Of a stretch of 64,000 bases of DNA, positions 5,392 through 45,269 are shown one piece after another; position 1 is the stretch's first letter; each line of letters starts with the position of its first letter. Under the pieces are notes generated by a model that worked only from the letters and a program-made list of their open reading frames with translations, was not told the DNA's origin and ran no database searches. This DNA is from an uncultured Myxococcales bacterium (GTDB lineage: Bacteria > Myxococcota_A > UBA9042): positions 138,350 through 202,349 of the forward strand of contig CAITYF010000029.1 in NCBI GenBank assembly GCA_903896545.1. The letters are read 5' to 3'. The position numbers and the translations under genes are program-made.

Positions 5392-5462
5392 CGGCGGCAT
5401 GGCCAAGTGGTAAGGCAGAGGACTGCAAATCCTCCATCCCCGGTTCGAATCCGGGTGCCGCC
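5392..5462 (+). tRNA. tRNA-Cys (anticodon GCA)
   Basis: Cloverleaf read directly from the sequence. Acceptor stem GGCGGCA/TGCCGCC, D-arm GCCAAGTGGTAAGGC, anticodon loop CUGCAAA (GCA), T-arm CCCGG-TTCGAATC-CCGGG, discriminator T. The CCA end is not encoded (CCG follows). Confidence 0.85.
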
Positions 5463-5791
5463 TCCGGAAACGCGCACACAGCTGGCTTACGGGCCCTGTG
5501 CGCGCGGTTCCTCAGAAGACGAGCGTTTGCTCGACCTTCTGCTGCGCGTGATGCAGTTTTTGGCATCGCGCCCTCCGATTCCGCGGACCCTGGCTGAGCT
5601 TCAGCCCCGGCCCAAAAAGTGGAATCGGCTGCCCCGACGGACTCTGGCTCCACGCCACAGACTGGGCTCGGTGCAGGTCTGCAGTCCCTCGCGAAAGCGG
5701 TGGAAAGCTGGCCAGGGGCGCGGACCATCCAACGACCTGCGCACGCAAAGTGTCTGAAACGATGGTGCTTTTTATCTTGATGATGCAAGTC

Positions 5792-8636: not shown

Positions 8637-11400
8637 CAAGATCCGGCGATTGATTCGGCCCGCTTCGGCGGCTCCGGCTGCTCGCCCCGCGGACAAGCCC
8701 GCGACAACGACGACTCCCGTGGACGCTGGCCGCCCGGTGATGCGCCGTCGTGCGGTGGAAGTTCCAGGTGCGCACACGCCCGTCGTGGAAACACACGCGC
8801 CTGTCGTCGCGCCGCCACCGCCAGCTCCAGCGCCGACCCCTGCGCCTGCACCCGTGGTTGTGGCACCGCCGCCCGTCGTCGTGGTTGCGCCGCCCGCGCC
8901 CGAACCGAAACCGGTCCCGGTTGCTCCGGCTCCTGAACCAGAAGTGGTCGTGGCGCCAGTCGTTGCGCCAGTCACCGGTCAGTACAAAGACGACCGCCCG
9001 CGTCTGAACCGCGCGCGCTTGGAAGACTTGACCCCGCCGCCGGAAATGATGCTGAAGATCAGCGAGCCCGCGCCGGTGCCGGTCGAGCCGACAGTCGCGC
9101 CGGTGCCCGCACCAGTCGTTGCCGCGGAAGTGGCCGTGCCTGCGACGCCGAGCATCCAGCCCGCGCCGACGCCGATCGCGGCCGAGCCCGTGCCTGACGA
9201 AGAAGCGGCCAAGCCGATCTTGTTGAACGAGATTGGCGCCGCACTCGGTGCCGGTGCGACGACGCGCCCGAAGAGTGGCCTCGTCCGCATGGCGATGCCG
9301 GACTATTTGAAGGACATTCCGAAGCCGACGCCCAAGGCAGCGCTGACCGATGCGCCTGCTCCGCCGCCATCAGCCGCGCCCGCCGCGCCGCCGCAAGCGG
9401 GCAGCGAAATGGGTGCCGATCGCGCCGGTCCGCCGCGTCCAGGTGCAGAACGCGAAGATCCGCGCAATGCGCGTGGTCGCAAGGTGATCTACGATCGCCG
9501 CCGCGATTCGTCCGCGACGACCGCCGATGGCGGACGCATTCGCGGCGGTAAGAAACCGCGCAAGGGCATGAAGCCCCTCGCGCCGGTCGCGCCCGCGAAG
9601 CAGGAAAAGCGTCACTTGCGCATCGAGGACACCATCACTGTGGCCAACCTCGCGCACCAGATGTCGGTCAAGGGCACGGAAGTCATCCGCAAGCTTTTCG
9701 ACCTCGGCATCATGGCGACGGTCAATCACCCGCTGGATCTGGAGACGGTTGAGCTCATCGCGGGCGAATTCGGCTTCACGGTCGAGAACGTCGGCTTCGA
9801 TCTGGACGCGTACCTCCAGAAGCCCGAGGACACCAAGGGTCAGGAAGTGCAGCGGAGCCCGGTCGTCACCGTCATGGGTCACGTGGACCACGGCAAGACG
9901 AGCCTTTTGGATGCGATTCGCAAGACGCGCACCGCGGCCAAGGAAGCGGGCGGCATTACCCAGCACATCGGCGCGTACGTCGCGGAAGTGCCTGGTTCGT
10001 CGTTTGCGGACGGCAAGGATCGCCGCGTCGTGTTTCTGGATACGCCGGGTCACGAAGCGTTTACGGCCATGCGTGCGCGCGGGGCGAAGGCGACGGACGT
10101 CATCGTGCTCGTCGTTGCGGCGGACGACGGCGTGATGCCGCAGACGATCGAGGCAATCGCTCACGCGAAGGCGGCCAACGTGCCGATCATCGTGGCGGTC
10201 AACAAGATCGACAAGCCCGGTGCGGACGTCGAGCGCGTGCGCCGCGAGCTCGCCGATCAAGGCGTCGTTGCGGAAGAATGGGGCGGCGACACGATCTTCT
10301 GCGAAGTGTCGGCAAAGACGGGCGTCGGACTCGACAAGCTGCTTGAAATGCTGGCGTTGCAGTCGGACATCATGGAGCTCAAGGCCAATCCGCACGCCGA
10401 TGCGCGCGGTCTCGTTGTCGAATCGCGGCTGGAGAAAGGCCGCGGTCCCGTCGCGACGCTGCTGGTTCAGTCCGGTACGCTCAAGCGCGGTCAGTTCGTC
10501 GTGGCCGGCAGCCAATACTGCCGCGTTCGCGCGATGCTGGACGACATGGGCCGTCCGCTGGAAGAAGCCGGTCCGGCAACGCCTGTGGAAGTCATCGGCT
10601 TTGACGCCGTGACGAGCGCAGGCGATGAAATGTACGTCGTGGCCGATGAAAAGAAGGCCAAGGCGATCGTCGAGCACCGGGTCGAGAAGGCGCGCGAGAA
10701 ATCGGCGCTTGTCACGTCGCGGCGCACGCTGGAAAGCCTGGGCGAAGTGGGCGAGACGGTCACGAAGGACCTCAACCTCATCATCAAGGCGGACGTGCAC
10801 GGTTCGGCGGAGGCGCTCAAGCAGGCGCTGTCCAAGATCGAGCACGAGGAAGTCAAAGTGCGCGTCCTGCACGCGGCCGTTGGCGGCGTGACGGAATCCG
10901 ACATCAACCTGGCGTCGGCGTCGAAGGCGGTCATCATCGCGTTCAACGTGAAGCCGGAAGTGAAGGGCAAGCGCTTGGCGGACGATCTCAACGTCCTCAT
11001 CCAGCCGTTCTCGGTCATCTACGACGCGATCGACTTTGTCACCGCGCGTCTGGAAGGCATGTTGGAGCCGATCATCGAGGAGGTCATCCTCGGTCACGCC
11101 GATGTGCGCAACCTGTTCAACGTGCCGAAGCTGGGGACCATCGCCGGCTGCAGCGTGTTGGACGGCGTCATCCAACGCAGCGCCAAGATGCGCGTTCTCC
11201 GGGCGAAAGAGAACATTTGGGAAGGCGAAATCGCGTCCCTCAAGCGCTTCAAGGACGACGTCAAGGAAGTCGCGCAGGGCTACGAGTGCGGCATTGGCCT
11301 GACCGGCTTTGCCAAGCTGAACGTGGGCGATCAGCTCGAGTGCTTTGAGTTGAAGAAGACCGCGCGCAAGCTGACGCCCGTGGCGACGGCCCGCGCTTAG
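8497..11400 (+). CDS. infB: translation initiation factor IF-2
   Basis: IF2 N-terminal domain ([25 protein letters not shown]). A Pro/Ala/Val-rich linker follows. G-domain motifs [19 protein letters not shown] and NKID are present. The C-terminal domains run to the stop at 11400. The start is uncertain: TTG 8497 was chosen, with GTG 8392, GTG 8461 and ATG 8551 as alternatives. Confidence 0.85.
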
Positions 11401-11409
11401 GCAAATCTC

Positions 11410-11814
11410 ATGCGCAGACAACCCAGTTTTACCCGGGCCGATCGGCTCGAAACGCTGATGTTGGACGAAGTCGAACGGCTGCTGTCGTACGAAGTTCGTT
11501 CGCCCTTGGCGCTAACGGTGAAGGTCGTAACCGGTCGCTTGGCGCCGGATCTGGGGCACTTGCGCGTGAACTACGTGTTGCGTGACACAGACGGAACGGC
11601 GGAACCGAGCAAGGCGCTCCTTGACGTGCTGGAGCGCGCGCAGAGCTTCATCGGCCGCACGTTGGTGGACGCACTCGATTTGCGCACGAAGCCGCACGTG
11701 GTCTTCGTTTTTGACAAGGACGCGCAAGGCGCGCAGCGGATCGAGAAGATTCTGGCTGAAGAACGAGCCAAGCGCGCCGCCGCCGAGGAGCCGTCAGAAG
11801 ATGTCCCAGCGTAA
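11410..11814 (+). CDS. rbfA: ribosome-binding factor A
   Basis: 134-aa product (RADRLETLMLDEVERLLSYEVRSPL...) has RbfA-like size and sits immediately after infB in the conserved position. Confidence 0.8.
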   Translation: MRRQPSFTRADRLETLMLDEVERLLSYEVRSPLALTVKVVTGRLAPDLGHLRVNYVLRDTDGTAEPSKALLDVLERAQSFIGRTLVDALDLRTKPHVVFVFDKDAQGAQRIEKILAEERAKRAAAEEPSEDVPA

Positions 11815-12736
11815 GCCAGCGCAAGTGCACGGCCTGCTCGTCATCGACAAGCCGGCAGGGTGGACGTCGCGCGACGTCGTCAACAAGGTCAGCGGCTTGC
11901 TCGGCGAGAAGCGGGTCGGCCACGCAGGGACGTTGGATCCCATGGCGACCGGCATCTTGTTGATCGCGTTTGGTGAAGCGACCAAGGGCGTGCGCTGGTG
12001 GCAAGACGCATCCAAGACGTATGAGACCGTCGTGCGGTTTGGCAGCGCGACGCTGTCTGACGATGCCGAGAGCCCTCCGCTGCGAACCGCCAAAGTGCCG
12101 ACGCTGACGTTGGAAACTGTGCGCGCGGCGCTGCCGCCGACCGGTGAGATCTTGCAAGTACCACCCGCCGTGAGCGCGCTTCAGCGCGGTGGTGTGCGCG
12201 ACCACGCGCGCGTCCGCAAGGGTGAAGTCGTGGTCCGCGAGCCACGTCCGGTGCGCTTGGAGGCGGTCGAAGTGCTGGCCATTGACGGCGCGGACGTGCA
12301 ACTTCGCGTGACGTGTGGCGCCGGCTTCTACATTCGCGCGCTGGGCCGCGACTTGGGCGAGGCGATGAAGTCCGCCGCGCATCTCGCGACTTTGCGCCGC
12401 ACCTTTGGCGGCGGATTCACGCTTGCGGAAGCGATTAGCCTCGAAGCGTTCCAGAAGTTGCCCGAGGACGAGCGCTTCACGCACTTGCGCCCTTTGCCTC
12501 AGGCGCTCGGCCGCGTGCTGCCGACGCTGACGGTGGGCGACGACCTGGTGTTGGCGTTCCGGCAGGGGAAGCAACCTGTTCTGCAAACGGAACTGCGCGG
12601 TGAAATTCTGGTGCTGGACGAACTCGGTCGCGCTGTGTGCGTCGTTGTGGCGCACGACGACGAAGCCGGTGCGCGCCTTGTCGTCGAGCGCGGTTTTGTC
12701 GCCCCGGATGCTGCCCCTGCTGCTGACAACGAGTAA
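11801..12736 (+). CDS. truB: tRNA pseudouridine(55) synthase TruB
   Basis: ATG 11801 (MSQRKPAQVHGLLVIDKPAGWTSRDVVNKV...) with the catalytic-Asp motif GHAGTLDPMATGILLIAFGEATK. It overlaps the rbfA 3' end by 14 nt. Confidence 0.85.
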   Translation: MSQRKPAQVHGLLVIDKPAGWTSRDVVNKVSGLLGEKRVGHAGTLDPMATGILLIAFGEATKGVRWWQDASKTYETVVRFGSATLSDDAESPPLRTAKVPTLTLETVRAALPPTGEILQVPPAVSALQRGGVRDHARVRKGEVVVREPRPVRLEAVEVLAIDGADVQLRVTCGAGFYIRALGRDLGEAMKSAAHLATLRRTFGGGFTLAEAISLEAFQKLPEDERFTHLRPLPQALGRVLPTLTVGDDLVLAFRQGKQPVLQTELRGEILVLDELGRAVCVVVAHDDEAGARLVVERGFVAPDAAPAADNE

Positions 12737-12739
12737 CAC

Positions 12740-13690
12740 GTGAAAGCGGCCTTTTCCGCAGAAATCACGGCGCGCCACCCGCTGCTCTACAGCGATCCTC
12801 CGCGCGCAGATCGACCGCCGCACGTACGCGCTGGCTCGGCGCTCGTGCGCATCGATGACGAACTTCTCGTATTTCAGGATGATTGCCTGTGGCTGGCCGT
12901 CGTCGCCCTGCCCGCGCTGACGGTGACCTCGCTGGCCTTGCCGACCGACGGCGGCATCCGGGTCTTTGACCACGCACACAAAGCGCAGAAACCGGACCTG
13001 GAGGGCGCATTTGCCATCGCGCACGGTGCGTCGTGGCGTGTCGTCGCGCTGGGTTCCGGCTCCACGCCAACGCGCCGTCGCTGGCTCGTCATCGACGACT
13101 GGCACGGCGCCCGAACGATGCGCTGGATAGACGCCTCGCCATTTTACGATGTGCTGGTTTCGCGGACGGACTTCTCCGGCGCGGAGCTGAACCTCGAAGG
13201 CGCCGTCGTGCGAGGCGACCGGCTCGTCCTCTTGCAGCGCGGCAATGGGTCACCGCACGCAGGTTTGGAACCGATAGACGCAACGGCCGAGATGAAGGTC
13301 GCTGACGTCCTGGCCTGGATCGATGATCCAACGCTGCCGCCCCCGCCGCTGTTGAACGTTCGTGCGCGCCATCCGGGGATGCTCGACGGCGTGCAGTTGT
13401 CGCTCACGGACGCCGCGGCACTGGACGCGGAAACGCTGCTGGCGCTCGCAGCGGCAGAGGCGTCACCTGATACGTTTGCGGATGGCCAAGTCGTCGGCGC
13501 GGCCTTGGGCATTCTCAGTGCCGAGAACGAAGCGTGGGCAGTTCTGACCGAAAACGGTGCGCGGTTTGTCGGGAAGCCGGAAGGCATCGCACTGGACGCC
13601 GCCGTGCCCCGCACTGGCTGGGTGGTTCTGGACGCCGATGACCCGAACCGCCCCGCGGAACTCTGCCGGTTTGTCTGGCACACGCCTTAG
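12740..13690 (+). CDS. hypothetical protein (first gene of the truB/rpsO accessory insertion)
   Basis: 316-aa ORF with GTG start 3 nt after the truB stop. No domain recognised. It is convergent with the downstream small lipoprotein genes. Confidence 0.4.
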   Translation: MKAAFSAEITARHPLLYSDPPRADRPPHVRAGSALVRIDDELLVFQDDCLWLAVVALPALTVTSLALPTDGGIRVFDHAHKAQKPDLEGAFAIAHGASWRVVALGSGSTPTRRRWLVIDDWHGARTMRWIDASPFYDVLVSRTDFSGAELNLEGAVVRGDRLVLLQRGNGSPHAGLEPIDATAEMKVADVLAWIDDPTLPPPPLLNVRARHPGMLDGVQLSLTDAAALDAETLLALAAAEASPDTFADGQVVGAALGILSAENEAWAVLTENGARFVGKPEGIALDAAVPRTGWVVLDADDPNRPAELCRFVWHTP

Positions 13691-13696
13691 CTGCCC

Positions 13697-14131
13697 CTAC
13701 TTGTTGGCTGCGGGACGTTCCTTGCCGGTAAAACTCAGCGCGTCGATCTGCCACGTCTGGCCAACCTTCTGCAGCGGCACGTCGTACTTCGCGCCTGCGC
13801 CGGTGTCATTTTGCCGCCGCAGCTTCAGCCACGCCGTATCGCCCTCGACATCGACACTCTCCAGATTCTCGCTGACCAAATAGAAATACGGGTGCTGTCG
13901 CGACTGCTTGGCGTCGTCCCCGCGCGCGTGCGCCAAGAGCCCGGCCACCAACGGTCGCGACTGTTCGGTGAAGCCGGCCAGGAACGTCTGCTCATCGCCC
14001 AACATCGCCGCGGCGGTCGTGCGCAACCAGGCTTCCTTTGGCGATTCGACGCGGACGTACTTGTACCACGCGAGAATGCCGCCGCCGATAACAAGGAGGA
14101 GCGCAAACACGGCGAGCAGTTTCTTCATCAT
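13697..14131 (-). CDS. small membrane-anchored/secreted protein, paralog of the adjacent gene
   Basis: 144 aa with an N-terminal signal-anchor (MMKKLLAVFALLLVIGGGILAW). It shares blocks with the neighbour: FLAG/FLGL, VEGDTAWL/VEENGHRAIV, and the C-terminal GQTWQIDAL/EGQWRIDLL. Confidence 0.55.
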   Translation of the reverse strand: MMKKLLAVFALLLVIGGGILAWYKYVRVESPKEAWLRTTAAAMLGDEQTFLAGFTEQSRPLVAGLLAHARGDDAKQSRQHPYFYLVSENLESVDVEGDTAWLKLRRQNDTGAGAKYDVPLQKVGQTWQIDALSFTGKERPAANK

Positions 14132-14137
14132 TCTCTC

Positions 14138-14533
14138 TCAACGCTCGGGCGAAATGGCTTCGGCAAATTGCGGCATCTCCAGCAGGTCGATGCGCCACTG
14201 CCCCTCTACCAGCCGCATGGGCACACGGCTGGCCGGCTTCTTGGACCGGGTCGTCACGATAGCACGATGCCCGTTCTCTTCCACAGACACCACGTCGCCG
14301 TCGGGCAGCAAGCGCGCGGTCGGTCGGCCATCGCGCAACACTTTGTAAACGCGCCCCGATTGGTTCACGACTGTAGGCGCCGCCGTCAACAACGCGGCCG
14401 CGCGCGGTTCGCACAGCCCAAGAAACGCCGCGTCGTCCTTTGCCGCCAGCGCCGCGCGTGCGTGATCGAGCACGTCCGCAGGTTCATCGCGGCAGGCAGT
14501 CAACAGCAGCAAGGTGGCGAGGGTGCGTCGCAT
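14138..14533 (-). CDS. small lipoprotein, paralog of 13697-14131
   Basis: 131 aa with lipobox LLLLTAC and the same C-terminal W.IDL block as the downstream paralog. The two are 6 nt apart and likely co-transcribed. Confidence 0.55.
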   Translation of the reverse strand: MRRTLATLLLLTACRDEPADVLDHARAALAAKDDAAFLGLCEPRAAALLTAAPTVVNQSGRVYKVLRDGRPTARLLPDGDVVSVEENGHRAIVTTRSKKPASRVPMRLVEGQWRIDLLEMPQFAEAISPER

Positions 14534-14861
14534 AGCTGGTTGGTGTCACGGATCTGGCGCGACGTCAATGGCGAGCGCCGCGGCAGCGTCGGCCATCGAC
14601 TCTGAACGATGGTAGATCGTCTCGTCTCGATCGGCGGGTCGCCAGAGGCCTGCGCGCGCGCTCCAAGTCCGAATCGCGACAGCTCTACCGGACGAGCGTT
14701 GATGTTGGACGCATTTCAGCCTACCTACACACTCCGACCGAAGTTCGAGATCAAACCGCTTCCATCCGCGGCGTGCCACCGGAGATGCACGCTCGTGGGC
14801 CCAGTCCGAGACCCAACAGGTCTGACCGAAGCAACTTGGTGTTCGAAAGAGGTCGGCATGT

Positions 14862-16046
14862 TTAGAGCGGCAAGCTCTCCCGCACGACATAACGGGCAAA
14901 AACTTGCGGGTGCCAGAGGCGATCGAAGCGGTCTTGAATGTGCCGCTGCCGCTCCACGCGCACGCTGTGCGGCTCGTTGTACAATTCGTCCAAGACCCGC
15001 CAGACACGATTCCAGTCGACCGCATCGGCGAGTTCGTAGCCCATCGGTCCGAGGTCGAGAACCTCAGTGCCCATTTCGAAGGGCGCATACCAGCGCAACG
15101 CGAGCTCGTCCGCCGGTACCGATGCGCCGGTCAAGAAGCTGTCGATGAAGCGAAACGGAAGGCTGCGACGAAAGCCACTGATGTTGATGTTGTGCCACGC
15201 GCGACCCACGACCTGCGGATAGTTGGCGTCGTAGACCTGCGCGCCGCGCCGGGTCTTGTGGTCCGTGTTCAAGACGCGGGCGTCGACACGCGTGGCATAG
15301 CGCCGCCGCATCTCTTCGACCAGCAAGCCGCGTTTCTCATTCGGATGCGAAACGAGCCCGCTAAACCGCGACATGACAACGCCTTCGGGACCATGAAGAA
15401 TCGGTTTGTCCGTCCCAAAATAGGCAAAAAGCGCTGTATCCTTGACTCCCTGTCCCGCGAGACGCCACTGCTGCAAAATCCTGGTGTTGCGCCGCTGGTT
15501 GAGCGTGCGGGAGAGCGGGCGCCCCAGCATCGCCGGGCGGATGCGCGACTGGTATGTCAGCACGTCCGGGTGGTACGGAAAAAACGCGTCTTGGGCAATG
15601 GGAAAGCCCCGCGGGTCGAAGGTCGTCGGACACTGCGCCTTGAAGTAGACGTCCGTGTCCATGAGCAGGTCGGTCTGGAACAGATAAGGCGAGTCGGCCA
15701 AGTCCAGCACAAACCGCCGCTTCTTGCCGCCCGCTTCGACGGCGCCGGTCAGCATGGCCCCGGAGCCCCGCGCGAGCGAGTCCATCAACCGCGGGAAAAG
15801 CCGGCGCACCGCTGGCGCTGCCTTCGCGTGGAGTTGAAACGGCGGCGTGACGAACGTTGTCCGGAGTTGGAATTCGATCTCACCGGCGTCATGGAGCATT
15901 TGCAGGCCAAACACCAGCCACTCAAAGTAGTCCATGTAGGGAAAATGGATCGGATCAAGCGTGACTCTGACGGGAGCTGGCATGACGTCCTCGGTGCTCA
16001 CTGGGCCGCCGTCGAGATGCCGCGGTCGCCAGCAGTTGTCGCTCAA
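14862..16046 (-). CDS. hypothetical protein, possible transferase; divergent from the HAD-kinase-nucleotidyltransferase cassette
   Basis: 394-aa ORF that appears somewhat less GC-rich than its neighbours. I am not confident of any domain. The real start may be the internal Met (MPAPVRV..., about 15983). Confidence 0.45.
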   Translation of the reverse strand: MSDNCWRPRHLDGGPVSTEDVMPAPVRVTLDPIHFPYMDYFEWLVFGLQMLHDAGEIEFQLRTTFVTPPFQLHAKAAPAVRRLFPRLMDSLARGSGAMLTGAVEAGGKKRRFVLDLADSPYLFQTDLLMDTDVYFKAQCPTTFDPRGFPIAQDAFFPYHPDVLTYQSRIRPAMLGRPLSRTLNQRRNTRILQQWRLAGQGVKDTALFAYFGTDKPILHGPEGVVMSRFSGLVSHPNEKRGLLVEEMRRRYATRVDARVLNTDHKTRRGAQVYDANYPQVVGRAWHNINISGFRRSLPFRFIDSFLTGASVPADELALRWYAPFEMGTEVLDLGPMGYELADAVDWNRVWRVLDELYNEPHSVRVERQRHIQDRFDRLWHPQVFARYVVRESLPL

Positions 16047-16294
16047 GCGTAGCGCGGACGTGATGCGCTGGGCAAGCGCGCGGTGGCGCGAGCTGGCGGA
16101 ACTGGAAGGGCGCGACAGAACAGCGGCCCCATTGCCACCGATTCGACAGAAGCAGCTAAAACCAAACGCTTTTCATGGCGCGCGAACGCGCTTGACGTCG
16201 CCCATCTGGCCGGTCAGACTCGCCGCGCTCGCTCGGAGAACCGCGTTGCGGTCTGGAGCGGAAGACGCGGCGTCAGGTTTCCGGAGCGATTGCC

Positions 16295-16678
16295 ATGATC
16301 CACAAAGAGAATGTTCTGGTCATGGATTTGGACGGGACGCTCTGCCCCATCAAAAAGCCCGGCGAGCGATACGAAGACCTGCTGCCACGCGCGGACGTGT
16401 TGACCAAGCTGTTGGAATACCGGAAGAACGGCTTTTACATCATCATTCAAACCGCCAGGAACATGCGCACCTACGAGGGGAACGTCGGGAGAATTAACGC
16501 GAACACCGCGAAGTCCGTGTTCCAGTGGCTGGATCGGCACGAAATTCCGCACGATGAGGTCCACTTTGGCAAGCCGTGGTCTGGCAAGGGGGGCTTCTAC
16601 GTGGACGACAAGGCTGTTCGCCCTGACGAATTTCTCCAACTCACGCACGAAGAAATTCTTGCTTTGGTCTCCAAATGA
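16295..16678 (+). CDS. small capless HAD-superfamily phosphatase (sugar-phosphate phosphatase-like, GmhB/KdsC-type architecture)
   Basis: GGAG RBS 9 nt before ATG 16295. HAD motif I is LVMDLDGTLCP and motif II is IIIQTARN. Motifs III/IV are GKPWSGKGGFYVDDKA. At 127 aa it has no cap domain. Its stop overlaps the next gene's ATG (ATGA). Confidence 0.7.
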   Translation: MIHKENVLVMDLDGTLCPIKKPGERYEDLLPRADVLTKLLEYRKNGFYIIIQTARNMRTYEGNVGRINANTAKSVFQWLDRHEIPHDEVHFGKPWSGKGGFYVDDKAVRPDEFLQLTHEEILALVSK

Positions 16679-18351
16679 GTGGCCTGCTCATCGTGCCCTC
16701 CGCGCGGCTGATTCCCGCTGAGCTCCAGGGCGATTTCGGGCAGATTCCGTCGTGCATGATCCCTTTTGGGGGCGCCCCGGCGCTTCAACAGATCCTGACC
16801 GCAGTTGCAGGTTCGGACACGCGGGTGCTCGTCGCCGGGCATGAGAATATCGCGTGGATCGAAAGCTTTCTCGCGCACTCGCCGCAGAGCGCCGTGCGGG
16901 TGCTCGACGTCGGACAGACGCGTAGTTTGGGTGAAACGCTGTTGAGCGCGCTACGCAGCGAGGCGAATCTGGACTGCAGTCTGATCGTGAACTTTGGCGA
17001 CACCGTCGTTCCCGGTGAACTGCCGACAGGGGATTCCTTCGTCTTCGCGTGCCCTGACGAGCTATTCCGCTGGACGACGTTTCGTTTAGCGGCGACCGGT
17101 TACATTGAGCAGATCGTTGACCGGGGCTTAGAAAAGAACGACGAGGCCGATCGCCGTGTCTTCGTCGGTGTCTTCTCCTTTCAAGACGCCAAACGCTTCG
17201 CCAAATGCCTCGCTGATGCCCTTGCCACGCCGTCGCCGGAGCTTGATTCGTTCTACCGAGCCGTGCTCGCTTATTACAATTCCGCCGACTTTCCGCCCGT
17301 TGCCCGCCAGGTCGACCTGTGGATCGATCTGGGTCACCTGGACACGTACTACGCCTCGCGACGCTTACACGCGATGGGGGCGCGCTCCTTCAACACGGTC
17401 CTCGTCGACCCATTTCGCAGCATCCTGACGAAGAAAAGCCGCAACGAAGCGAAGTTCGCCGATGAGATCCAGTGGTACACACGCCTGCCGCCGGCTCTGG
17501 GCTACCTCGCGCCACGGGTCTTTTCGCATTCCGTTGTTCCGGGCGAAATGAGCATCGATCTGGAGTTCTACGGCTACCCGCCGCTTTCCGAAGTGTTCCT
17601 GTTTTCCCGGTTGGATCTAGCAGAATGGCGGGCGATTTTTGGACGCTTGGGGTTGGTTCTGGAAGACATGGCCCGTTACCAAACCGGGCCGGGCGATCGC
17701 GAACGCATCCGGCCCTCCCTCCGTTCCATGTATCTGGACAAGACGCTGGAACGACTTCAGGAAGTGATGGGCCTCCAAGTCGATCCGGCGATCCTGAACG
17801 GTCCGCTGGAGGTCAACGGCAAGCTGTGCGTACCGTTGCGCGACCTTCTGCAGGCGCTGCCCGATCTGCTCGAGGCTTCAGGACTGCAGGACGCTGCGCA
17901 CTTTTCAGTCATTCACGGCGATTTCTGTCTGAGCAACATCCTTTTTGATCGTCGCAGCCGCACCGTCCGGCTGGTCGATCCGCGGGGCCGTTTCGGGGAA
18001 TTCGACATCTACGGCGACCCACGCTACGACTTGGCCAAACTCTCGCATTGCTTCAACGGCGGTTACGACTTCCTGGTCCAAGGGCTCTTCTCGCTGGAAT
18101 CCACTTCGCCGGGCGTCTACCGCCTCACGGAATTCGCCAACGCCCTCCATCACCAAATCCGCGATGCCTTCAACGCGCAGTTTCTCCCGTCGCCGGTGCT
18201 GTACAATCAGGTACGTCTCATCGAGTCGCTGCTGTTTCTCAGCATGGTTCCACTCCACGCGGATCGGCCGCTTTCGCAGCAGGCGTTTCTTCTCCGCGGG
18301 CTCCAGACGGCGACTCCCTACTTCTCTCATTTGCATTCCTCCGCCAGGTGA
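16675..18351 (+). CDS. fusion protein: degenerate nucleotidyltransferase-like N-domain plus APH/choline-kinase-fold phosphotransferase C-domain
   Basis: The N-terminus shows the NTP-transferase fold pattern with a weakened G-loop (IPFGGAP, VGQTRSLGETLL about QxxLGTghA, LIVNFGDTVV about LxxGDxx). The C-terminus has Brenner-type kinase motifs VIHGDFCLSNILFD and LVDPRGRFGEFDIYGDPRYDLAKL. Length is 558 aa, and the gene is translationally coupled to the HAD gene. Confidence 0.65.
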   Translation: MSGLLIVPSARLIPAELQGDFGQIPSCMIPFGGAPALQQILTAVAGSDTRVLVAGHENIAWIESFLAHSPQSAVRVLDVGQTRSLGETLLSALRSEANLDCSLIVNFGDTVVPGELPTGDSFVFACPDELFRWTTFRLAATGYIEQIVDRGLEKNDEADRRVFVGVFSFQDAKRFAKCLADALATPSPELDSFYRAVLAYYNSADFPPVARQVDLWIDLGHLDTYYASRRLHAMGARSFNTVLVDPFRSILTKKSRNEAKFADEIQWYTRLPPALGYLAPRVFSHSVVPGEMSIDLEFYGYPPLSEVFLFSRLDLAEWRAIFGRLGLVLEDMARYQTGPGDRERIRPSLRSMYLDKTLERLQEVMGLQVDPAILNGPLEVNGKLCVPLRDLLQALPDLLEASGLQDAAHFSVIHGDFCLSNILFDRRSRTVRLVDPRGRFGEFDIYGDPRYDLAKLSHCFNGGYDFLVQGLFSLESTSPGVYRLTEFANALHHQIRDAFNAQFLPSPVLYNQVRLIESLLFLSMVPLHADRPLSQQAFLLRGLQTATPYFSHLHSSAR

Positions 18352-18356
18352 ACGCC

Positions 18357-19085
18357 ATGCACATTCTAATCACGATGGCCGGCCTCGGCAGCCGCTTTCG
18401 CGCGAAGGGCTATTCGGTGCCCAAGTACCAGATCGAAGTCCGCGGTCGCACCCTATTTTCTTGGTCGATGGAGAGCCTCCGGAATTTCTTTCCCGGGAAT
18501 CTCACCACGTTCGTGGTGCGCAAGGAGGACGCTCCTGATGCATTCATTCGGCAGGAACTCCTCGCGTTTGGCGTCACCGAACCCGTCATCATCAGCCTCG
18601 ACGCGTTGACCGACGGACAGGCGACAACTGTGCTTCTGTCCCTACCGACGCTTCGCGGGCGCGACGCCCAAGCGCCGCTGCTCATCTACAACATCGATAC
18701 GTTTGTTGAGCCCCACGCGCTGCAACCCTCCGATATTCGTGGCGATGGATGGATTCCCTGTTTTCCCGGCAAAGGGGATGCGTGGAGCTTCTTCCGTACC
18801 GACGCGAGCGGGCGGGTGTTGGAAGCCAAGGAAAAGGTGCGGATTTCGGACCATGCATCGATCGGACTCTACTATTTTGCGTCTCTGGACATCTTCGAAG
18901 AGACCTACCGCGCGTATTTTCGGGACGGACTGCCTGACGGACTGCGCGAACGCTACGTCGCGCCCATGTACCAGGACCTCATCGCCCGCGGGCGCGATCT
19001 CTGGGTTCAGGAGATTCCCGAAGGCGCTGTCCACCCGCTGGGAACACCGGAGGAAGTCGATCTGTTTGCAGCCGACGGTCGCTGA
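18357..19085 (+). CDS. sugar-phosphate/head-group nucleotidyltransferase (LicC/MurU/GlmU-N-like)
   Basis: ATG 18357, 6 nt after the upstream stop. N-terminal MHILITMAGLGSRFRAKGYSVPKYQIEVRGR is the canonical NTP-transferase G-loop and PK motif. Length is 243 aa. Confidence 0.75.
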   Translation: MHILITMAGLGSRFRAKGYSVPKYQIEVRGRTLFSWSMESLRNFFPGNLTTFVVRKEDAPDAFIRQELLAFGVTEPVIISLDALTDGQATTVLLSLPTLRGRDAQAPLLIYNIDTFVEPHALQPSDIRGDGWIPCFPGKGDAWSFFRTDASGRVLEAKEKVRISDHASIGLYYFASLDIFEETYRAYFRDGLPDGLRERYVAPMYQDLIARGRDLWVQEIPEGAVHPLGTPEEVDLFAADGR

Positions 19086-19118
19086 CCGCCTTTGGCCACC
19101 CATGCGGGCAGATTCACA

Positions 19119-19148
19119 TTGACATCCCGGCCATTGCCCCTGTACACT
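19119..19148 (+). promoter_or_regulatory. candidate sigma70-type promoter for rpsO (TTGACA, 18-nt spacer, TACACT)
   Basis: TTGACA at 19119-19124 and TACACT at 19143-19148, read directly. A perfect 7-bp hairpin GGACACC(19164-70)/GGTGTCC(19180-86) lies downstream in the rpsO leader. Confidence 0.35.
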
Positions 19149-19285
19149 CTCGCCCCCAGTCAGGACACCCATCAAGGGCGGTGTCCCCACGTAGGGAAAA
19201 GGATTGGACGGGCGCTCAAACGGGGCTTCCCGCCACCCGAAGACACCACCGCCGCGCTCCCAAGCGAGCATAGGAACGGACAGAA

Positions 19286-19555
19286 ATGGCGCTTCTCGCA
19301 CACCAGACCGCTGAAATCGTTGAGACCCACCGCAAGCATGCGACCGACACCGGCTCGCCGGAAGTGCAGATCGGCATCCTCACGACGCGGATCAACCAGC
19401 TCACCGAACACTTCAAAATCCACGTGAAGGATCACCACGGTCGCCGCGGCTTGCTGCGCATGGTGAGCCAGCGTCGCGGCTTGCTCGACTATGTCCGCCG
19501 CACGGACGTTGATCGCTACAAGACCATTCTGGCGACGTTCGAACTGCGCAAGTAG
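19286..19555 (+). CDS. rpsO: 30S ribosomal protein S15
   Basis: 89-aa product [57 protein letters not shown]... is unmistakably S15. An RBS GGAacGGA sits upstream. Confidence 0.9.
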
Positions 19556-19756: not shown

Positions 19757-22093
19757 ATGGCCCATGTGCAAAAGACCGTCGCGATTGGCGACAAGACTCT
19801 ACTCCTCGACACCGGCAAAATGGCGAAATTCGCCAACGGCGCCGTGATGATTTCCATGGGCGGCACGTCCGTTCTGTGCACGACCGTCTCGTCCTTGACG
19901 AACAAGGTCGGCGCGCAGTTCTTCCCGCTTTCCTGCGACTACTTCGAGAAGTTCTACGCTGCCGGTCGCATCCCGGGCTCGTACTTCAAGCGTGAAGGTC
20001 GTCAGGCGGAACACGAAGTGCTCGCTTCGCGCCTCATCGATCGTCCGTGCCGCCCGCTGTTCCCGGAAGGGTTCCAGGCGGAGACGCAGGTCACGGCGAC
20101 GGTCGTTTCGTACGACAAGAACGCTGATCCGGTTGTGCTGGCGGTGAACGGCTGCTCTGCCGCGCTCGCGATTTCCGACATTCCGTGGGCGGGACCCGTT
20201 GCGGCGACGCGCGTCGGTTACGTGGACGGCAAGCTGGTCGCCAACCCGACGTTCGCCGAGAAGGCCGTCAGCGAGTTGGACCTGTTCGTCGTCGTCGGCC
20301 CCAAGGGCATCGTCATGGTGGAAGCCGGTGCGAAGTTCGTCAGCGAGCAGCTGATGATCGACGCGCTGTTCTTCGCTGAAGACACGCTGAAGCCGGTCGT
20401 CGCGGCGTTCCAGGAACTGGCGGCGGAAGTCGGCAAGGCCAAGTACGTGTACGTTGCCCCCGCCGTGAACGAAGAACTCGTGGCCGCGTGCCGCGAAGTC
20501 GCCTTCGAGCAGATCAAGACGGCGGCTGTCATCCCGGCGAAGACCGAACGCTACGCAGCGATCTCGGCAGTCAAGAAGGCGGCCGTTAAGGCGCTCGCTG
20601 AGAAGTACCCGAACGACGGCGAGGCGATCAAGGAGATCGTCGGCGAGTTCAAGTCGGAATTCTGCCGCGCGCAGATCCTCAACGACCGCACGCGCCTCGA
20701 TGGCCGCGCGCTCGATCAGGTCCGCAAGATCACCATCGAGACCGGCGTGCTGCCGCGCGCTCACGGCTCGGTGCTGTTCACCCGCGGTGAGACGCAGTCG
20801 CTCGTTGCCGCGACGCTGGGCACGGGTCACGATCTGCAGAAGATCGAGACGCTGAACGGCACGGAAGATCGCCGCTTCCTGCTGCACTACAATTTCCCTC
20901 CGTTCTCGACGGGTGAAGTGAAGCCGCTGCGTGGTCCTGGCCGTCGCGAGATCGGTCACGGTGCGCTCGCGTGGCGCGGCATCAGCCCGGCGCTGCCGTC
21001 GTTTGAGAACTTCCCGTACATCCTGCGCTCGGTCTCCGAGATTCTGGAGTCCAACGGTTCGTCGTCGATGGCGACGGTCTGCGGCACCAGCCTCGCGCTG
21101 ATGGACGCGGGCGTGCCGGTCAGTTCGGCGGTCGCTGGCATCGCGATGGGCCTGATTTCGGACGGCGACAACTTCGCGGTGCTGTCTGACATCCTCGGCG
21201 ACGAAGATCACTTCGGCGACATGGACTTCAAGGTTGTCGGTTCGGCCGACGGCATCAGCGCGCTGCAGATGGACATCAAGATCGACGGCCTGAGCCGCCC
21301 GATTCTGGAAGCGGCGCTGGCGCAGGCCAAGGCCGGTCGCCTGCACATTCTCGGTGAGATGAACAAGGCGATCTCGACGTTCCGTCCGGAGCTGTCGCAG
21401 TTCGCCCCGCGGATCTTCACGATCCTCATCAACCCGGAGCGCATCAAGGACCTCATCGGCCCCGGTGGCAAGAACATCAAGTCGATCGTCGCGACCACGG
21501 GCGCGCAGGTGGACGTGGAAGAAGACGGCACGGTTCGCGTGGCGGCCATCGACGGCGAAGTTGCTGACGCGGCCATCAACATGGTCCGCGGCTTCACCAG
21601 CGAAGCGGAAGTGGGCAAAGACTACGACGGCGTCGTCACGCGCATCGCCGATTTCGGCGCGTTCGTCCGCATCATGCCGGGCACGGAAGGCCTCGTGCAC
21701 ATCAGCGAACTGGCGGAAGGCCGTGTGGAACGCGTGGAAGACGTGTGCAAGCTCGGCGACCCGCTGAAGGTGCGCGTCATCAACGTGGACCGCATGGGCA
21801 AGATTCGCCTGTCGCGTCGTGAAGCGTTGGGTCTCCCGCCGCGTCCGCCGCGTGAAGACGGCGATCGTGGTGGTGGTAGTGGCGGCGATCGCGGCCGAGG
21901 CCCCCGTGATCGCGATCGCGGCCCGCGCCGTGACGGCCCGCGTGATGACCGTGGTCCGCGTCGTGATGATCGCGGCCCGGCCCAAGGTGCTGCCGAGGGC
22001 GGCCACGGCGAGCGCAGCGATGCGGCCAACGAGCGCCGTCAGCGCCGTGAACGCGGCGAAGGCGGCAGTGGTGAGACGCCCGCAGGCGAGTAA
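19757..22093 (+). CDS. pnp: polynucleotide phosphorylase (PNPase) with C-terminal Arg/Gly/Asp-rich low-complexity extension
   Basis: GGAG RBS. Two RNase PH domains, KH and S1 ([23 protein letters not shown]...) are present. An RD/RG-rich tail of about 90 aa follows ([47 protein letters not shown]...). Total length is 778 aa. Confidence 0.9.
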
Positions 22094-22113
22094 TCGTCTG
22101 GCGTGAATGATTG

Positions 22114-22160
22114 AAGAAGGCCCGGTTGGACGCGAGTTCAGCTGGGCCTTCTGGCTTTTG
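22114..22160 (+). terminator. candidate intrinsic terminator after pnp
   Basis: Inverted repeat aAGAAGGCCC(22114-23)...GGGCCTTCT(22144-52) followed by GGCTTTTGGGG, a T-containing tract. Confidence 0.45.
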
Positions 22161-22664
22161 GGGCGAGGACCGGCACGGGGCGAAGATCGAAGCGGCGTCC
22201 TTGCAGCGATGCTCCGCGCAGCTGGTCGCTCGTGTACGCGGGCTGGGACTGGGGCCGCTGCGCTTTCACGTTGGCGGGGGCGGAAGTATTTTGTGGCCAG
22301 CGTAAAAAGATCCGCGGCAAAAGTTGGGAATCTGCGAATACCAGTTGTCGCGCGTGTCGGGCGCGATGCTCTTCGGGAGCCTCGGCGCGCGCCGGGGGGA
22401 GCGGGGTAGCCCACAGAAACCAGGCCGGGCGCTCAGCGGGACAGAAGGACCCCGCGGGAGTGCCGAAGGTTGGGCGGCGCAGCGCGAGCTGCGGGACCGC
22501 TTTGGTGGATCACGTCCGCGTGACGGCGGGCGTTTCGGCGGGGAGGTCGATTTTTTGGCTGGGAGGTCCCCCCGGCGTAAGCCGGAACCTCGCCTTTTTG
22601 CCGAAGCCGACTGAAGCGCGCCACGGTGCACGTCGAAGCTGGCCCCACTCGCTCGGCACCAAGT

Positions 22665-25600
22665 TCATCGAACGCATCGAACGTACAGTGAGAACGAGCC
22701 ATCATAACCGATCGTCTTCCCGTAGGTGAAGTCCGTGCGCCAGTACGACCCACCCACCGCCTTGTAGGTCGTTGCACTCCAGTAGGCTGCGAGCTGGGTG
22801 CCGAAAAACACCGTCGTGTTAATCGCGGGCCCGGTTGACGTTGTGTTGCGGTCGACAATCGAGTCGAGCTCAATCGCGCGCGGAAGCCGCCAGCCGCCAC
22901 CGGCGGTCGAGAGTCCACTGCACCGCGTGATCGCACTCGCCTGCACATAGGGAGAAACCGAAGGAGTCCGCTCCCAAACAAGCTTCGTGGCGTTGTCTGT
23001 GACGGTGCTGGCATCGGAGGTGAACCGCGTCGACGGGCTTGCCGACAACACGGAGCTTCGTACACAACGCACTCGCGCCGTGCTCGCCACGCTGAGGGTG
23101 TTGAGGACACCAGCGGCCCCCGATACCGTCCAGGCGCTTTGCGACGCGGTCTCGACCGACTGCACCGCAGTCCAATAGACGTCCGTGACCGCAACCGACT
23201 GGAAGACGCTGGATACGACCGGTCCGTACGCGGTCAGATCTCGCAGCGACGCCAGTTCAGCGAGCGACGGGAGGCGCCAGTCCGACTTGGAGGCCGTCGT
23301 CGCCGTTTTGCAGTAGGCGTTGGCCTCAGTCCACGTCTTCAGCGTGACGCCGCTGTCTTGTTTCTGCCAAGTCAGGTACGTCAACGCGTCGCCCACCGTT
23401 CCGTCACCGTTGTCGGCCAATTTCGTCGCGGGCACGTTCGGATTGTCCGTCCGGCCGCCCCAAGCCGGAAAATCCGGCGCGCACACGCAACCGGCTCCCG
23501 TCTCGACGTACGCGTAGCCATTCGTGCAACTCGCCGGTCCCGTACACGTCAGCGTAAACGTGCTCACCACGCCCGCGCCACACACCCCCGCCGTACACGT
23601 CCCCGTCGCGCACGCCGCCCCATCGCTCAGGTTCACGTGCTTGCACCCACTCGCGGGGTCGCAGCTGTCCGTCGTGCAGCCATTGCCGTCGTCGCAATTC
23701 ACGCCCGTGCCCACGCAAGCGCCGCCGGTACACGTGTCGCCGGACGTACACGCGCTGCTGTCATCACACGCGGCCGCAAGATTCGCGTGCGTGCAGCCCG
23801 TCGTGCTGTCGCAGGAATCGCTCGTGCAGACCTGATTGTCGCTGCAGTTGACCGCGTTGCCGGTACAGACGCCGCTGACGCACGTGTCACCCGTCGTGCA
23901 CTTGCTGCCGTCGTCACACGAAACCACCACGTTGGTCTGCACGCAACCCAGCACTTTGTCGCAGCTGTCGCTCGTGCACGGGTTACCGTCATTGCAAAAC
24001 GCGGTCGCTCCTTTGCACGTGCCCTGCCCGCACATGTCACCGTTCGTGCACGCGTTGCCGTCGTCGCACGGAGCCGAGGTGTACGTGAAAATACAGCCCG
24101 CGACCTTGTCGCAGGTGTCTGCCGTGCACAGGTTGAAGTCGTTGCAAATGGCCGCCGTGCCGCCGCAAGCGCCGTTCGCGCAGGCGTCGTTGAACGTGCA
24201 AGCGTCGTTGTCATTGCACGCCGCCGTGTTGTTGCTGTGACTGCACGCGCCGCCGACGAGGCACGTGTCCGTCGTACACGGGTTGCCATCGTTGCAGCCG
24301 CTGCTGGTGACGGTGTACACGCAGCCCTTGACCACGTCGCAGCTGTCCGTCGTACAGACGTTGTTGTCGTCGCAGACCTTGTTGGTGCCCACGCAGCCGC
24401 CGCCCGTGCAAGTTTCCCCGGCCGTGCACGCGTTGTTGTCGTTGCACGCCAAGGCGTTGTCCACATGCGTGCAGCCTGCCTTGCTGCAGCTGTCCTCAGT
24501 GCAGAAGTTGCCGTCGTCGCAGATCATCGCCGTACCGGCGCAGAGACCAAGCTTGCAAAAGTCGCCCGTCGTACACGCGTCGCCGTCGTTGCAGTTCAGG
24601 TTGTTGAAAGAGTGCCCGCAGCCATCAATCGCGTCGCAGCTGTCGGTCGTGCACGGGTTGCCGTCATTGCACGCCGCCGAGTTCGCCGCAAAAACACAGC
24701 CTGATCCGCCGTCGCAGCCGTCGCTTGTGCACACGTTGCCGTCGTCACACGTCAGGGCTGCGCCCGCGCACGCGCCGTTCTGACAGGTGTCTCCGGTCGT
24801 ACACGCGTCACCGTCATCGCAACTCGCGCTGGTCTTGGCGTGAACGCAGCCGATGGTTATTTGGCAGCTATCCGCGGTGCACGCGTTGCCATCGTCGCAG
24901 TTGGTGGTCTGTCCGCTGCAACTGCCGCTGGCGCACTTGTCCGCGCTCGTGCAGGCGTTGCCGTCGTTGCAGCTGATTGTGTTGTTGCTGTGCACGCAGC
25001 CCGCGCCGGCGATGCACGCGTCGTTGGTGCACGGGTTGGCGTCGTCGCAGTTGGTCAGGCTGCCGATGCAGCCCCCGTCCGTGCACGTGTCGCCAGTCGT
25101 GCAGGCGTTGCCGTCGCTGCAGGCTGCGGTGCTGTTGGCGTACGCGCAGCCAGTCGCCGGGTTGCAGGTGTCGTCGGTGCAGGTGTTGCCGTCGTCGCAA
25201 GGCAGCGCTTGTCCCTGACAGCCGCCGCCCAAGCACACGTCGCCCACCGTGCAGGAGTTGCCGTCGTTGCACAGCGCTGTTGTGTTGGCATGGACGCAGC
25301 CTAGACTCGGCTGGCAGCTGTCCATCGTGCAGATGTTCGCGTCATCGCACGTGATACCACTGCCGACGCAGCCGCCGGCGACGCACGTGTCCGCGCCGGT
25401 GCACGCGTTGCCGTCAAAACAAGGTGCCGTCGCGTTGCTGTGGCTGCAGCCCTGGGTGCCAGAACACGTGTCGTTGGTGCACGCGTTGCCGTCGTCACAG
25501 GAAACTGGCGCGCCGTTGCAGGTTCCCAAGGCGCAACTGTCGCCCGTCGTGCACGCGTTGCCGTCGACGCACGCCAGCGTGTTGGCCGCGTGTCCGCACC

Positions 25601-26678: not shown

Positions 26679-26845
26679 CCAGCATTCCTCCGGAGCAGAG
26701 CCAAGCGACTCGTGCGATGTCGCTACGATGGCAAAAATGCGTTTGGGTTTCAACGGCGGAATCACGCAATCACCGAGCGCGTTCCAGTCGTCTGGCAGCG
26801 GATCCAGCCGCGACGGGCGAACGGCCGCGCGTGGCGGAATCGGAC

Positions 26846-27448
26846 CTACGGAAGCGTGTCCGACTTGCTGTCGCTGCCCGTTCCGTCGGCCTTGGGCTGG
26901 CAGGAAAACGCCGCGTTCATGGCGCACTGGAAGTAGTCCTGGAAGATTTTTGCGCCAATTGGGTCCGCCTTCAGCGGCGCGCCGCAAGCGTCCTGACAAG
27001 CCTGGTCGCTGTTGCACTTGCCGAGGCACACGAACGCGTTGGTGCACGTCGCGTTGCCCTTGCACGCGGCGGTTTCCTTGGCACAGACGGCGTCCACGCA
27101 CGCCGAGGAATTGTCGCCGGTGTCCTTGCTGCCGCTGACCGTGTCGTTGACGACGACAACTGGATTCGCAGCGCACGACGCCTCCGTCTTGGAGGTGACG
27201 ACGCAATGCGTGCCGGCTCCGCACGCCGTTCCCGCGGTCCACGTGGCCGGAGAAACGTCGGTCGGGCAGTTCACAATCGAACTCGTCGTGGTGCCAGGCT
27301 CCGTGTAGCAGCCAACCGGCGTGTTCGCCGCGACGCACGGGTTGCCGGGCGCGCCGCCGGGAACGGGATTACCGGAATTCGTCGTGCTGCCGCACGCGGT
27401 CGCGAGGATCGCGCACGCCACAAGGAAAAACTGCTTCAACGCGGTCAT
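26846..27448 (-). CDS. small Cys-rich secreted lipoprotein
   Basis: Internal Met at 27448 gives MTALKQFFLVACAILATACGS (lipobox). The mature protein of about 180 aa has roughly 22 Cys. Confidence 0.6.
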   Translation of the reverse strand: MTALKQFFLVACAILATACGSTTNSGNPVPGGAPGNPCVAANTPVGCYTEPGTTTSSIVNCPTDVSPATWTAGTACGAGTHCVVTSKTEASCAANPVVVVNDTVSGSKDTGDNSSACVDAVCAKETAACKGNATCTNAFVCLGKCNSDQACQDACGAPLKADPIGAKIFQDYFQCAMNAAFSCQPKADGTGSDSKSDTLP

Positions 27449-44089: not shown

Positions 44090-44153
44090 GAAAACTCCTT
44101 GCCCCAAGCGAACGCGGGCTGCCGAACAGTTTGCTACCAGCCGTTCCGTTTGG

Positions 44154-45194: not shown

Positions 45195-45269
45195 GTGCGG
45201 AAACGTACCACGCCGGCAAAAAGCCGCCAGAGTTTGCACATACCCGCGCTTGACCTACGATCGGGGCCG

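Follow-up and report, generated by a model that had tools for sequence, protein, structure and literature searches.

A seven-gene interval between truB and rpsO-pnp in an uncultured Myxococcales bacterium: a probable patchwork islet with a candidate sugar-activation trio

How did seven genes with no housekeeping role come to lie between truB and rpsO-pnp, which are usually neighbors? We addressed this question in a 64,000-nucleotide stretch of contig CAITYF010000029.1 (hereafter the window), which belongs to a lake-metagenome-assembled genome of an uncultured Myxococcales bacterium. The overall GC content is 64%, and genes were set from the list of open reading frames and the frame pattern of GC content at first, second and third codon positions (GC1, GC2 and GC3). 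The 6.5 kb from the truB end at 12736 to the rpsO start at 19286 hold exactly seven non-housekeeping genes, A to G (12740-19085), and a first-pass annotation made from the sequence alone had both boundaries and the inventory exactly right. We favor, with more confidence than doubt, an explanation of this interval as a patchwork islet, old and specific to its lineage, at the border of the nusA-infB-truB operon with a separately promoted rpsO-pnp operon; its core would be gene D together with E-F-G, which form one self-contained glycan-decoration module.

The interval has three parts: A, which is probably coupled to truB in translation; B-C-D, which encodes two small envelope proteins and a rare GT-B enzyme; and E-F-G, a mobile trio. 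On the left, truB (11801..12736, plus strand; TIGR00431, 183 bits; PF01509) has the same start as in public gene calls and is the last gene of the rimP-nusA-ylxR-infB-rbfA-truB run. The right boundary is formed by rpsO (19286-19555, plus strand; TIGR00952, S15) and pnp (19757-22093, plus strand; TIGR03591, PNPase). The same gene order was found on nine contigs from several samples. An assembly chimera was ruled out, as identical joins occur on independent contigs and in a sister species.

The filled truB-rpsO junction and its age

A PNPase-based metagenome scan returned 80 unrelated loci, 55 of which extend at least 2.5 kb upstream of rpsO. These relatives are only ~50% identical and served as a baseline, not for lineage synteny. 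truB lies within 700 bp of rpsO in 46 of the 55, as the first-pass annotation had presumed; in the others it is ~1.1 kb away (two loci), 8-9 kb away (two loci) or absent upstream (five loci). A TruB scan of genome contigs gave four close relatives and then unrelated phyla, and a protein search supplied the intermediate relatives. Two of these act as syntenic outgroups, sharing with the window the upstream order GH3-S41-x-rimP-nusA-x-infB-rbfA-truB. rpsO-pnp follows truB directly in both (P0133, TruB 58% identical, 130-200 bp past truB; P0146/L174, 52%). Given the tight junction in most baseline loci and in both outgroups, the tight arrangement is ancestral, and filling is a derived state of the genus-level clade to which the window belongs.

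Other relatives show that this junction is labile. In one with 64% TruB identity (L173), unrelated genes follow truB. In a metagenome-assembled genome named Myxococcales with 48% identity (L180), rpsT follows truB directly and rpsO-pnp is missing locally. We also observed that the L180 truB-rpsT join (10001-11257) can be compared with another relative in which rpsT lies ~5 kb beyond rpsO; this comparison indicates that rpsO-pnp and its neighbors are locally missing in L180.

The closest relatives carry different versions of the interval. The sister species (bin-1730, TruB 85% identical) has the order truB-A-[five genes]-B-C-D-E-F-G-rpsO-pnp, reconstructed from two loci. One of these, L084, was found through a 75% homolog of F, and it overlaps the other, L004, with 100% identity over 5495 bp; the two loci therefore represent one genome. 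The five-gene insert spans ~11 kb on the minus strand and encodes an 1118-amino acid Dicty_CTDC protein, a TPR protein, a Ser/Thr kinase, a YHYH protein and a 954-amino acid protein. A second relative (L003, 85%) has A followed by the beginning of this five-gene block, and a third (L002, 85%) has the block straight after truB, without A. The fourth (L001, 84%) has a TPR gene, B-C-D, a different cassette and a Dicty_CTDC protein, with no rpsO within reach. That cassette (L001:14103-17724) lies beside B-C-D and encodes an APH/choline-kinase-like kinase, a DHQS-like protein, an SDR protein and a nucleotidyltransferase with 30% tblastn identity to G. It resembles cyclitol or polyol activation routes, as does its counterpart in L175. 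The patchwork character of the interval follows from these comparisons: A is absent from L001 and L002, B-C-D accompanies another cassette in L001, and E-F-G occurs alone in three other genomes (L085, L171 and L168).

Divergence and gene order bear on the age of the block. A comparison of the window with bin-1730 gives 48-58% identity at four-fold degenerate sites for A to G, compared to 55% for truB, 48% for rbfA and 54% for one downstream gene. Only genes with strong codon bias exceed this range (nusA 73%, pnp 67%, rpsO 85%), and the unrelated pair G and G' gives 24%. As A to G diverged like their flanks and keep the same order in bin-1730, the block was already present in the common ancestor of both species. 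Its sequences thus point to vertical inheritance since that ancestor, and to neither a recent nor a single acquisition by this genome.

Composition is only mildly unusual. The E-F-G span (16295-19085) has a GC content of 0.596, the minimum for stretches of that length anywhere in the window (mean 0.640, standard deviation 0.014), and F (GC3 0.735, z -1.7) and G (GC3 0.707, z -2.5) have the lowest GC3 of 35 window genes. A to D match the rest of the window (GC 0.641, GC3 0.774), so that the lower GC content that the first-pass annotation had placed especially at 14.9-19.1 kb holds for E-F-G only. The tetranucleotide distance peak reaches only z ~1.7, and the sister-species E-F-G genes have a GC3 of 0.81-0.875, the level of their neighbors. 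Pfam and NCBIfam searches found no integrase or transposase among A to G. There is no tRNA at the block (the sole tRNA is a tRNA-Cys at 5393-5465), and in a repeat search no pair bracketed the block beyond short, chance-level matches. The content of the block differs among five close species, yet it is shared and co-diverged with the sister, and only E-F-G is atypical.

These observations suggest that the islet was built up at the operon boundary before this species split from its sister species (at least the one compared here), and that remodeling among close relatives is still under way through deletion, insertion of other genes and cassette swapping. The interval would then offer a dated, stepwise case of islet growth, shrinkage and cassette exchange among sister species, and an example of how the truB/rpsO-pnp junction can open and fill with neither transcription unit disturbed.

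The transcription geometry is consistent with a position between operons. A, which has a GTG start in the window, begins 4 nt past the truB stop in both the window and the sister species, and is thus probably co-transcribed with truB. B-C-D converge on A, D and E diverge, E and F overlap by ATGA, and F and G are 5-8 nt apart. Promoters for D-C-B and E-F-G are presumed, by geometry, to lie in the divergent D/E intergenic region (15984..16294, 311 bp), in which a sigma-70 scan found no site. Downstream of G, a promoter-like site for rpsO (19119..19148, plus strand; TTGACA, 18 nt, TACACT) matches 10 of 12 positions in the same type of scan, and its -35, its -10 and the rpsO leader are conserved in L084. 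We infer an operon layout in which A belongs with truB, D and E have divergent promoters and rpsO has its own; the coupling of A and the rpsO site together place the islet at an inter-operon boundary. An Rfam search over 11-23 kb found no S15 or PNPase leader, nor any other family. The rpsO leader had a folding energy no better than shuffles (z 0.19), and a terminator scan performed at chance (13 found, 11.5 expected).

The E-F-G trio, gene D and related systems

The description of E-F-G as a HAD/kinase/nucleotidyltransferase cassette was borne out by profile and structure searches. E (16295-16678, plus strand) encodes a 127-amino acid capless HAD phosphatase with the motif MDLDGT. It matches the TIGR01689 'capsule biosynthesis phosphatase' profile (1.4e-43, profile positions 4-119 of 126) and PDB 1xpj (9e-40). 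F (16675-18351, plus strand) encodes a 558-amino acid protein with a nucleotidyltransferase-fold N-terminal domain and an APH-type kinase C-terminal domain (PF01636, residues 254-458). In a structural model of F with a predicted local distance difference test score (pLDDT) of 92.6, the N-terminal domain matches IPCT, GDP-mannose pyrophosphorylase, HddC, RmlA and 4evw, with phosphonate cytidylyltransferase also among the matches. G (18357/18360-19085, plus strand) encodes a 241-242-amino acid nucleotidyltransferase related to PDB 4evw, a Vibrio cholerae NDP-sugar pyrophosphorylase (1.1e-37).

E and F have remote homologs among phage proteins. Section 27 of PMC13326640 (citing He et al., Nat Chem Biol 2026) describes AfhE and AfhF as converting arabinose-5-phosphate into UDP-arabinofuranose, with AfhE a kinase plus pyrophosphorylase and AfhF a HAD phosphatase that turns the 1,5-bisphosphate into the 1-phosphate. 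These enzymes are from Escherichia phage HY126 and have homologs in RB69 and DLP3; for the DLP3 phosphatase homolog, the same source names 1xpj as the best match in structure (PMC13326640). A tblastn search of phage genomes with F matched 242 records, HY126 included, where the match is a 562-amino acid gene that follows an arabinose-5-phosphate isomerase and precedes a 128-amino acid gene. F aligns with HY126 AfhE by BLASTP (1e-16 over 500 amino acids) and hhalign (98.9% probability, 472 columns), and E with AfhF by BLASTP (1e-8, 28% over 116 amino acids).

The two systems are alike in the size and alignment of F (558 amino acids) and AfhE (562) across both domains, in the size (127 and 128 amino acids) and 1xpj HAD type of E and AfhF, in the adjacency of the genes with a glycosyltransferase nearby, and in a proposed logic that leads from sugar-5-phosphate through sugar-1,5-bisphosphate and sugar-1-phosphate to an NDP-sugar. 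They differ in that F lacks the GxGxxTRL...PK signature kept by AfhE and in that the cellular cassette always includes a separate G. The cellular genes run E-F-G and the phage genes AfhE-AfhF, no isomerase lies nearby here, identity is only 24-28%, and the proposed acceptor is a cellular glycan instead of DNA. The glycosyltransferase of HY126 also shows no sequence similarity to gene D.

The signature motifs suggest a division of labor within the cellular trio. AfhE has an intact nucleotidyltransferase signature (GAGLATRL...IPK), whereas this P-loop is replaced by PSA[K/R/T]...IPS in 47 of 47 aligned members of the F family (F and 46 others). G keeps a GxGSRF...PK signature (MAGLGSRF...VPK). 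Loss in F and retention in G imply that the fused N-terminal domain is probably degenerate and that G performs nucleotidyl transfer, a testable prediction for the trio as a whole. Full-length F-like genes also occur in Enterococcus phage 9183 (L179, 3675-5650) and Ralstonia phage phiRSL1 (E-values 1e-26 to 1e-35), outside the RB69/HY126 group. The gene in phage 9183 adjoins a small HAD gene and is near thymidylate-synthase-like genes. These phage genes suggest related sugar-activation modules for DNA modification.

E-F-G is also found far from the window. Full-length homologs of F are patchily distributed across phyla (source names include Vampirovibrio, Desulfobacteraceae, Riflebacteria, Alphaproteobacteria, Deinococcus and Heimdallarchaeota). 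Three other genomes (L085, L171 and L168) carry the trio (127-132, 556-558 and 240-241 amino acids) inside Wzx/Wzy polysaccharide clusters that also encode Wza, Wzz, Wzy, a flippase, GT1/GT2/GT4 enzymes, EpsG and sugar epimerases. The unrelated genomes that bear the trio span GC contents of 0.51 to 0.72. In L168 the trio shares 84/68/75% identity with the window E/F/G, near the 87/75/81% of the sister-species copy. It lies (L168:756-3540) in a background of roughly 45-51% GC, among genes with 42-51% GC, and has a GC3 of 0.67, compared to 0.44-0.58 for its neighbors, which points to a relatively recent acquisition by a low-GC genome from a high-GC donor. Such near-sister identity in low-GC surroundings implies that the trio moves between distant genomes.

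Gene D (14862-15983, or to 16046, minus strand) likely encodes the transferase. The first-pass annotation had listed a 394-amino acid product without a recognizable family. That length holds from an upstream TTG, while the ATG of public gene calls gives 373 amino acids; D has no Pfam or NCBIfam match, and thus belongs to no curated glycosyltransferase family by sequence. Its AlphaFold model (pLDDT 94.3, predicted template modeling score 0.92) adopts a two-Rossmann-domain GT-B fold. Foldseek returned 28 PDB matches at an E-value of 1e-3 or below, all 28 of them GT-B glycosyltransferases, with POGLUT1 the best and a mycobacterial mannosyltransferase, WaaG, SdgB and MshA likewise at ~1e-5. PF13524 (Glyco_trans_1_2) is matched by 1 of 36 close members of the D family and by 6 of 10 remote relatives, three of which exceed the Pfam curated cut-off.

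The D family is rare and patchy. A word-based search gave 41 matches, and an exhaustive profile search of 1.84 billion representatives gave 191 clusters at 50% identity; one copy carries the NCBI name Luteolibacter. Every context that we examined adjoins a kinase plus nucleotidyltransferase cassette. In L175 the cassette is of the L001 kind (APH kinase, DHQS-like, SDR and nucleotidyltransferase) and precedes the D homolog. In L176 the neighbors are an F-like nucleotidyltransferase-APH fusion, an E-like HAD and a G-like nucleotidyltransferase, so that the whole set recurs at only 38% D identity. In the Luteolibacter locus (L177) they are a nucleotidyltransferase, a HAD and an APH protein, followed by a flippase and GT4 enzymes. 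This constant adjacency suggests that D uses the donor made by its neighbors and that the donor cassette is interchangeable. D is thus a probable divergent GT-B glycosyltransferase, from a rare family that has no Pfam model, and we propose it as the user of the E-F-G donor.

Very large Cys-rich repeat proteins (EGF_CA/cEGF or Dicty_CTDC) adjoin D modules at L175:1362-5732, L084:4154-7018 and L001:17728-20895. Such proteins are abundant in these genomes, and the link may be chance. POGLUT1/Rumi glycosylates EGF repeats. It is conceivable, at long odds, that D founds an uncatalogued GT-B family for unusual cassette-made donors (NDP-arabinofuranose-like here, cyclitol- or polyol-like in L001 and L175) and that its acceptors are Cys-rich Dicty_CTDC/EGF-like repeat proteins; it would then be the bacterial equivalent of O-glycosylation by POGLUT1/Rumi.

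A four-step route can be proposed from these homologies. The kinase domain of F would phosphorylate a sugar phosphate at the anomeric position; homology to AfhE makes D-arabinofuranose-5-phosphate, or a comparable phosphate of a pentose or hexose, the likeliest substrate. E would then strip the non-anomeric phosphate, G would turn the resulting sugar-1-phosphate into an NDP-sugar, and D would pass the sugar to an envelope acceptor such as lipopolysaccharide, exopolysaccharide or another component. A housekeeping KdsD encoded elsewhere in the genome could supply the substrate.

Genes A, B and C may or may not contribute to this route. A (12740-13690, plus strand), entered in the first-pass annotation as a 316-amino acid unknown, does encode 316 amino acids and matches only DUF6929/DUF6910 (PF22000, 4.8e-53; PF21851, 6.7e-51); a search of the PDB gave no relative. 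In L003 and L004, A (70-72% amino acid identity) comes after truB. B (13697-14131, minus strand) encodes a 144-amino acid protein with an N-terminal hydrophobic anchor, no lipobox cysteine and no Pfam or NCBIfam match; its orthologs in L084 and L001 are 84% and 80% identical. C (14138-14533, minus strand) encodes a predicted 131-amino acid lipoprotein (lipobox LLLLTAC) with orthologs that are 80% and 78% identical. B and C had been described as two paralogous small lipoproteins; the lipobox of C agrees with this, but B has no lipobox cysteine. Clear paralogy was rejected on marginal BLASTP (E-value 0.022 over 17 residues) and hhalign (E-value 0.0017, 15% probability, 82 columns) results, and C is at most a distant paralog of B. 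C and D are separated by a 328-bp spacer (14534..14861) that is unique to this species: its counterparts measure 63 bp (L084) and 42 bp (L001), and its sequence matches nothing else in the window or in the other loci retrieved.

Several other systems resemble E-F-G. E matches the TIGR01689 family (EcbF/BcbF of Pasteurella multocida capsule loci) and the V. cholerae structural-genomics protein 1xpj, and G matches 4evw, a second such protein from V. cholerae. Elsewhere the trio likewise resides in capsule, exopolysaccharide or O-antigen type clusters, whereas the window cassette sits between truB and rpsO, outside a polysaccharide cluster, and E falls below the family cut-off. In the literature, bcbF, ecbF and TIGR01689 brought up nothing but unrelated acronyms, and no biochemical function was found for these family members. 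The nucleotide-heptose pathway employs HldE, a bifunctional kinase/nucleotidyltransferase, and GmhB, a capless HAD 7-phosphatase. It shares with the proposed route an anomeric kinase, a small HAD that removes the distal phosphate and a nucleotidyl transfer, and HddC is among the matches of the F N-terminal domain. It differs in its kinase, which has a ribokinase/GHMP fold in HldE/HddA compared to the APH fold here, and no sedoheptulose isomerase is present; the resemblance is one of analogy, not membership. O-antigen and capsule loci are variable glycan islets at conserved junctions, with swappable donor-synthesis cassettes. The truB-rpsO interval similarly has a fixed position and variable content, a donor cassette exchanged between the window/L084 and L001, and a cassette that crosses phyla. 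It differs in having only four functional genes, no Wzx, Wzy, Wza or initiating transferase, and an unusual address.

What is new here is modest: a cellular, split-function variant of the AfhE/AfhF route, a rare and uncatalogued GT-B enzyme paired with it, and an unusual chromosomal address. The link to the recently solved phage route nonetheless gives context to a widespread, uncharacterized cellular trio (a TIGR01689-type HAD, a 556-558-amino acid nucleotidyltransferase-kinase and a 4evw-type nucleotidyltransferase), two members of which have orphan structural-genomics structures.

Competing readings of the interval

The first-pass annotation had read the interval as consistent with horizontal acquisition into a conserved operon. 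The interruption is indeed derived and E-F-G is mobile, yet the block appears old, patchwork and vertical within its clade. A stricter version, in which a recent, genome-specific island was inserted into the operon as one unit, is very improbable. The low GC content of E-F-G, the low GC3 of F and G and the presence of the trio in unrelated genomes would fit such an island, but the sister species has all seven genes in the same order. At synonymous sites the block is as diverged as truB and rbfA, A to D are compositionally native, the sister E-F-G has normal GC3, the modules occur apart in relatives, and no integrase, transposase, tRNA or flanking repeat was found. An unlikely but more serious alternative dispenses with foreign DNA altogether: resident chromosomal genes would have been shuffled between truB and rpsO-pnp at an unstable junction. 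This would account for the native composition of A to D, the missing mobility genes and the various ways in which the junction is broken (other genes in L173, rpsT in L180, a cassette without rpsO in L001), and the spot downstream of pnp is variable too. It sits poorly with a trio that crosses phyla and has one copy of near-sister identity in a low-GC genome, with the swap of the D-adjacent cassette in L001, and with the rarity and patchiness of the D family (191 clusters, one Luteolibacter copy).

A further alternative concerns function rather than history. N-acetylmuramic acid (MurNAc) recycling employs the MupP phosphatase, the AmgK kinase and the MurU uridylyltransferase, and E-F-G could serve this pathway or activate phosphocholine or another phospho-alcohol (as LicA/LicC, or the CDP-2-glycerol enzymes Gtp1-3), instead of making an NDP-pentose. 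The same three enzyme classes (HAD, APH-fold kinase and small nucleotidyltransferase) are present, a possible likeness to MupP, AmgK, MurU and Gtp1-3. IPCT and phosphonate cytidylyltransferase are among the fold matches of the F N-terminal domain, and the L001/L175 cassette looks like polyol or cyclitol activation. We nevertheless regard this option as quite doubtful: F aligns with AfhE over nearly its full length and has no Choline_kinase Pfam match, E belongs to the 1xpj-type capless HAD family of AfhF (127 and 128 amino acids), and E-F-G resides in polysaccharide clusters with glycosyltransferases and not among cell-wall recycling genes.

Other observations weigh against our preferred account of a patchwork glycan-decoration islet. 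The two relatives with TruB identities of 64% and 48% lack a local rpsO for different reasons, and the outgroups are metagenomic genomes; insertion is thus not cleanly separable from serial rearrangement. No Wzx, Wzy or initiating transferase lies near the block in the window. E scores 147.8 bits for TIGR01689, under the curated NCBIfam cut-off of 162, and F is only 24% identical to AfhE, so that the sugar could differ. A tblastn search with the HY126 isomerase found no arabinose-5-phosphate isomerase in the block, the window or any fetched E-F-G locus, and Pfam found no SIS domain in A to G; without a linked isomerase, context does not fix the sugar substrate. Elsewhere E-F-G is followed by GT2 or GT1 enzymes instead of D, and the pairing of D with the trio is thus not universal.

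Flanking genes

Pfam and NCBIfam searches identified the upstream series as an FHA protein, a GH3 hydrolase, a PDZ-S41 peptidase, a 168-amino acid protein, tRNA-Cys, rimP, nusA, a YlxR-like gene, infB, rbfA and truB. The tRNA-Cys (GCA anticodon, 5393-5465) lies between the 168-amino acid gene and rimP and heads the rimP-nusA-infB run.

Straight after pnp (window 22103-26963; gene 22665-27338, minus strand), the window encodes a 1557-amino acid protein of secreted type that carries Lcl_C domains and 12 Dicty_CTDC repeats. In the sister species, this spot is occupied instead by a GT4 glycosyltransferase and a VDE-like gene, and rpsO-pnp therefore has variable regions on both sides. Further downstream (42260-45239, minus strand), a 361-amino acid APH-family kinase (PF01636, 4.5e-26) is encoded immediately beside glmS, a possible anomeric kinase for amino sugars like AmgK/NahK.

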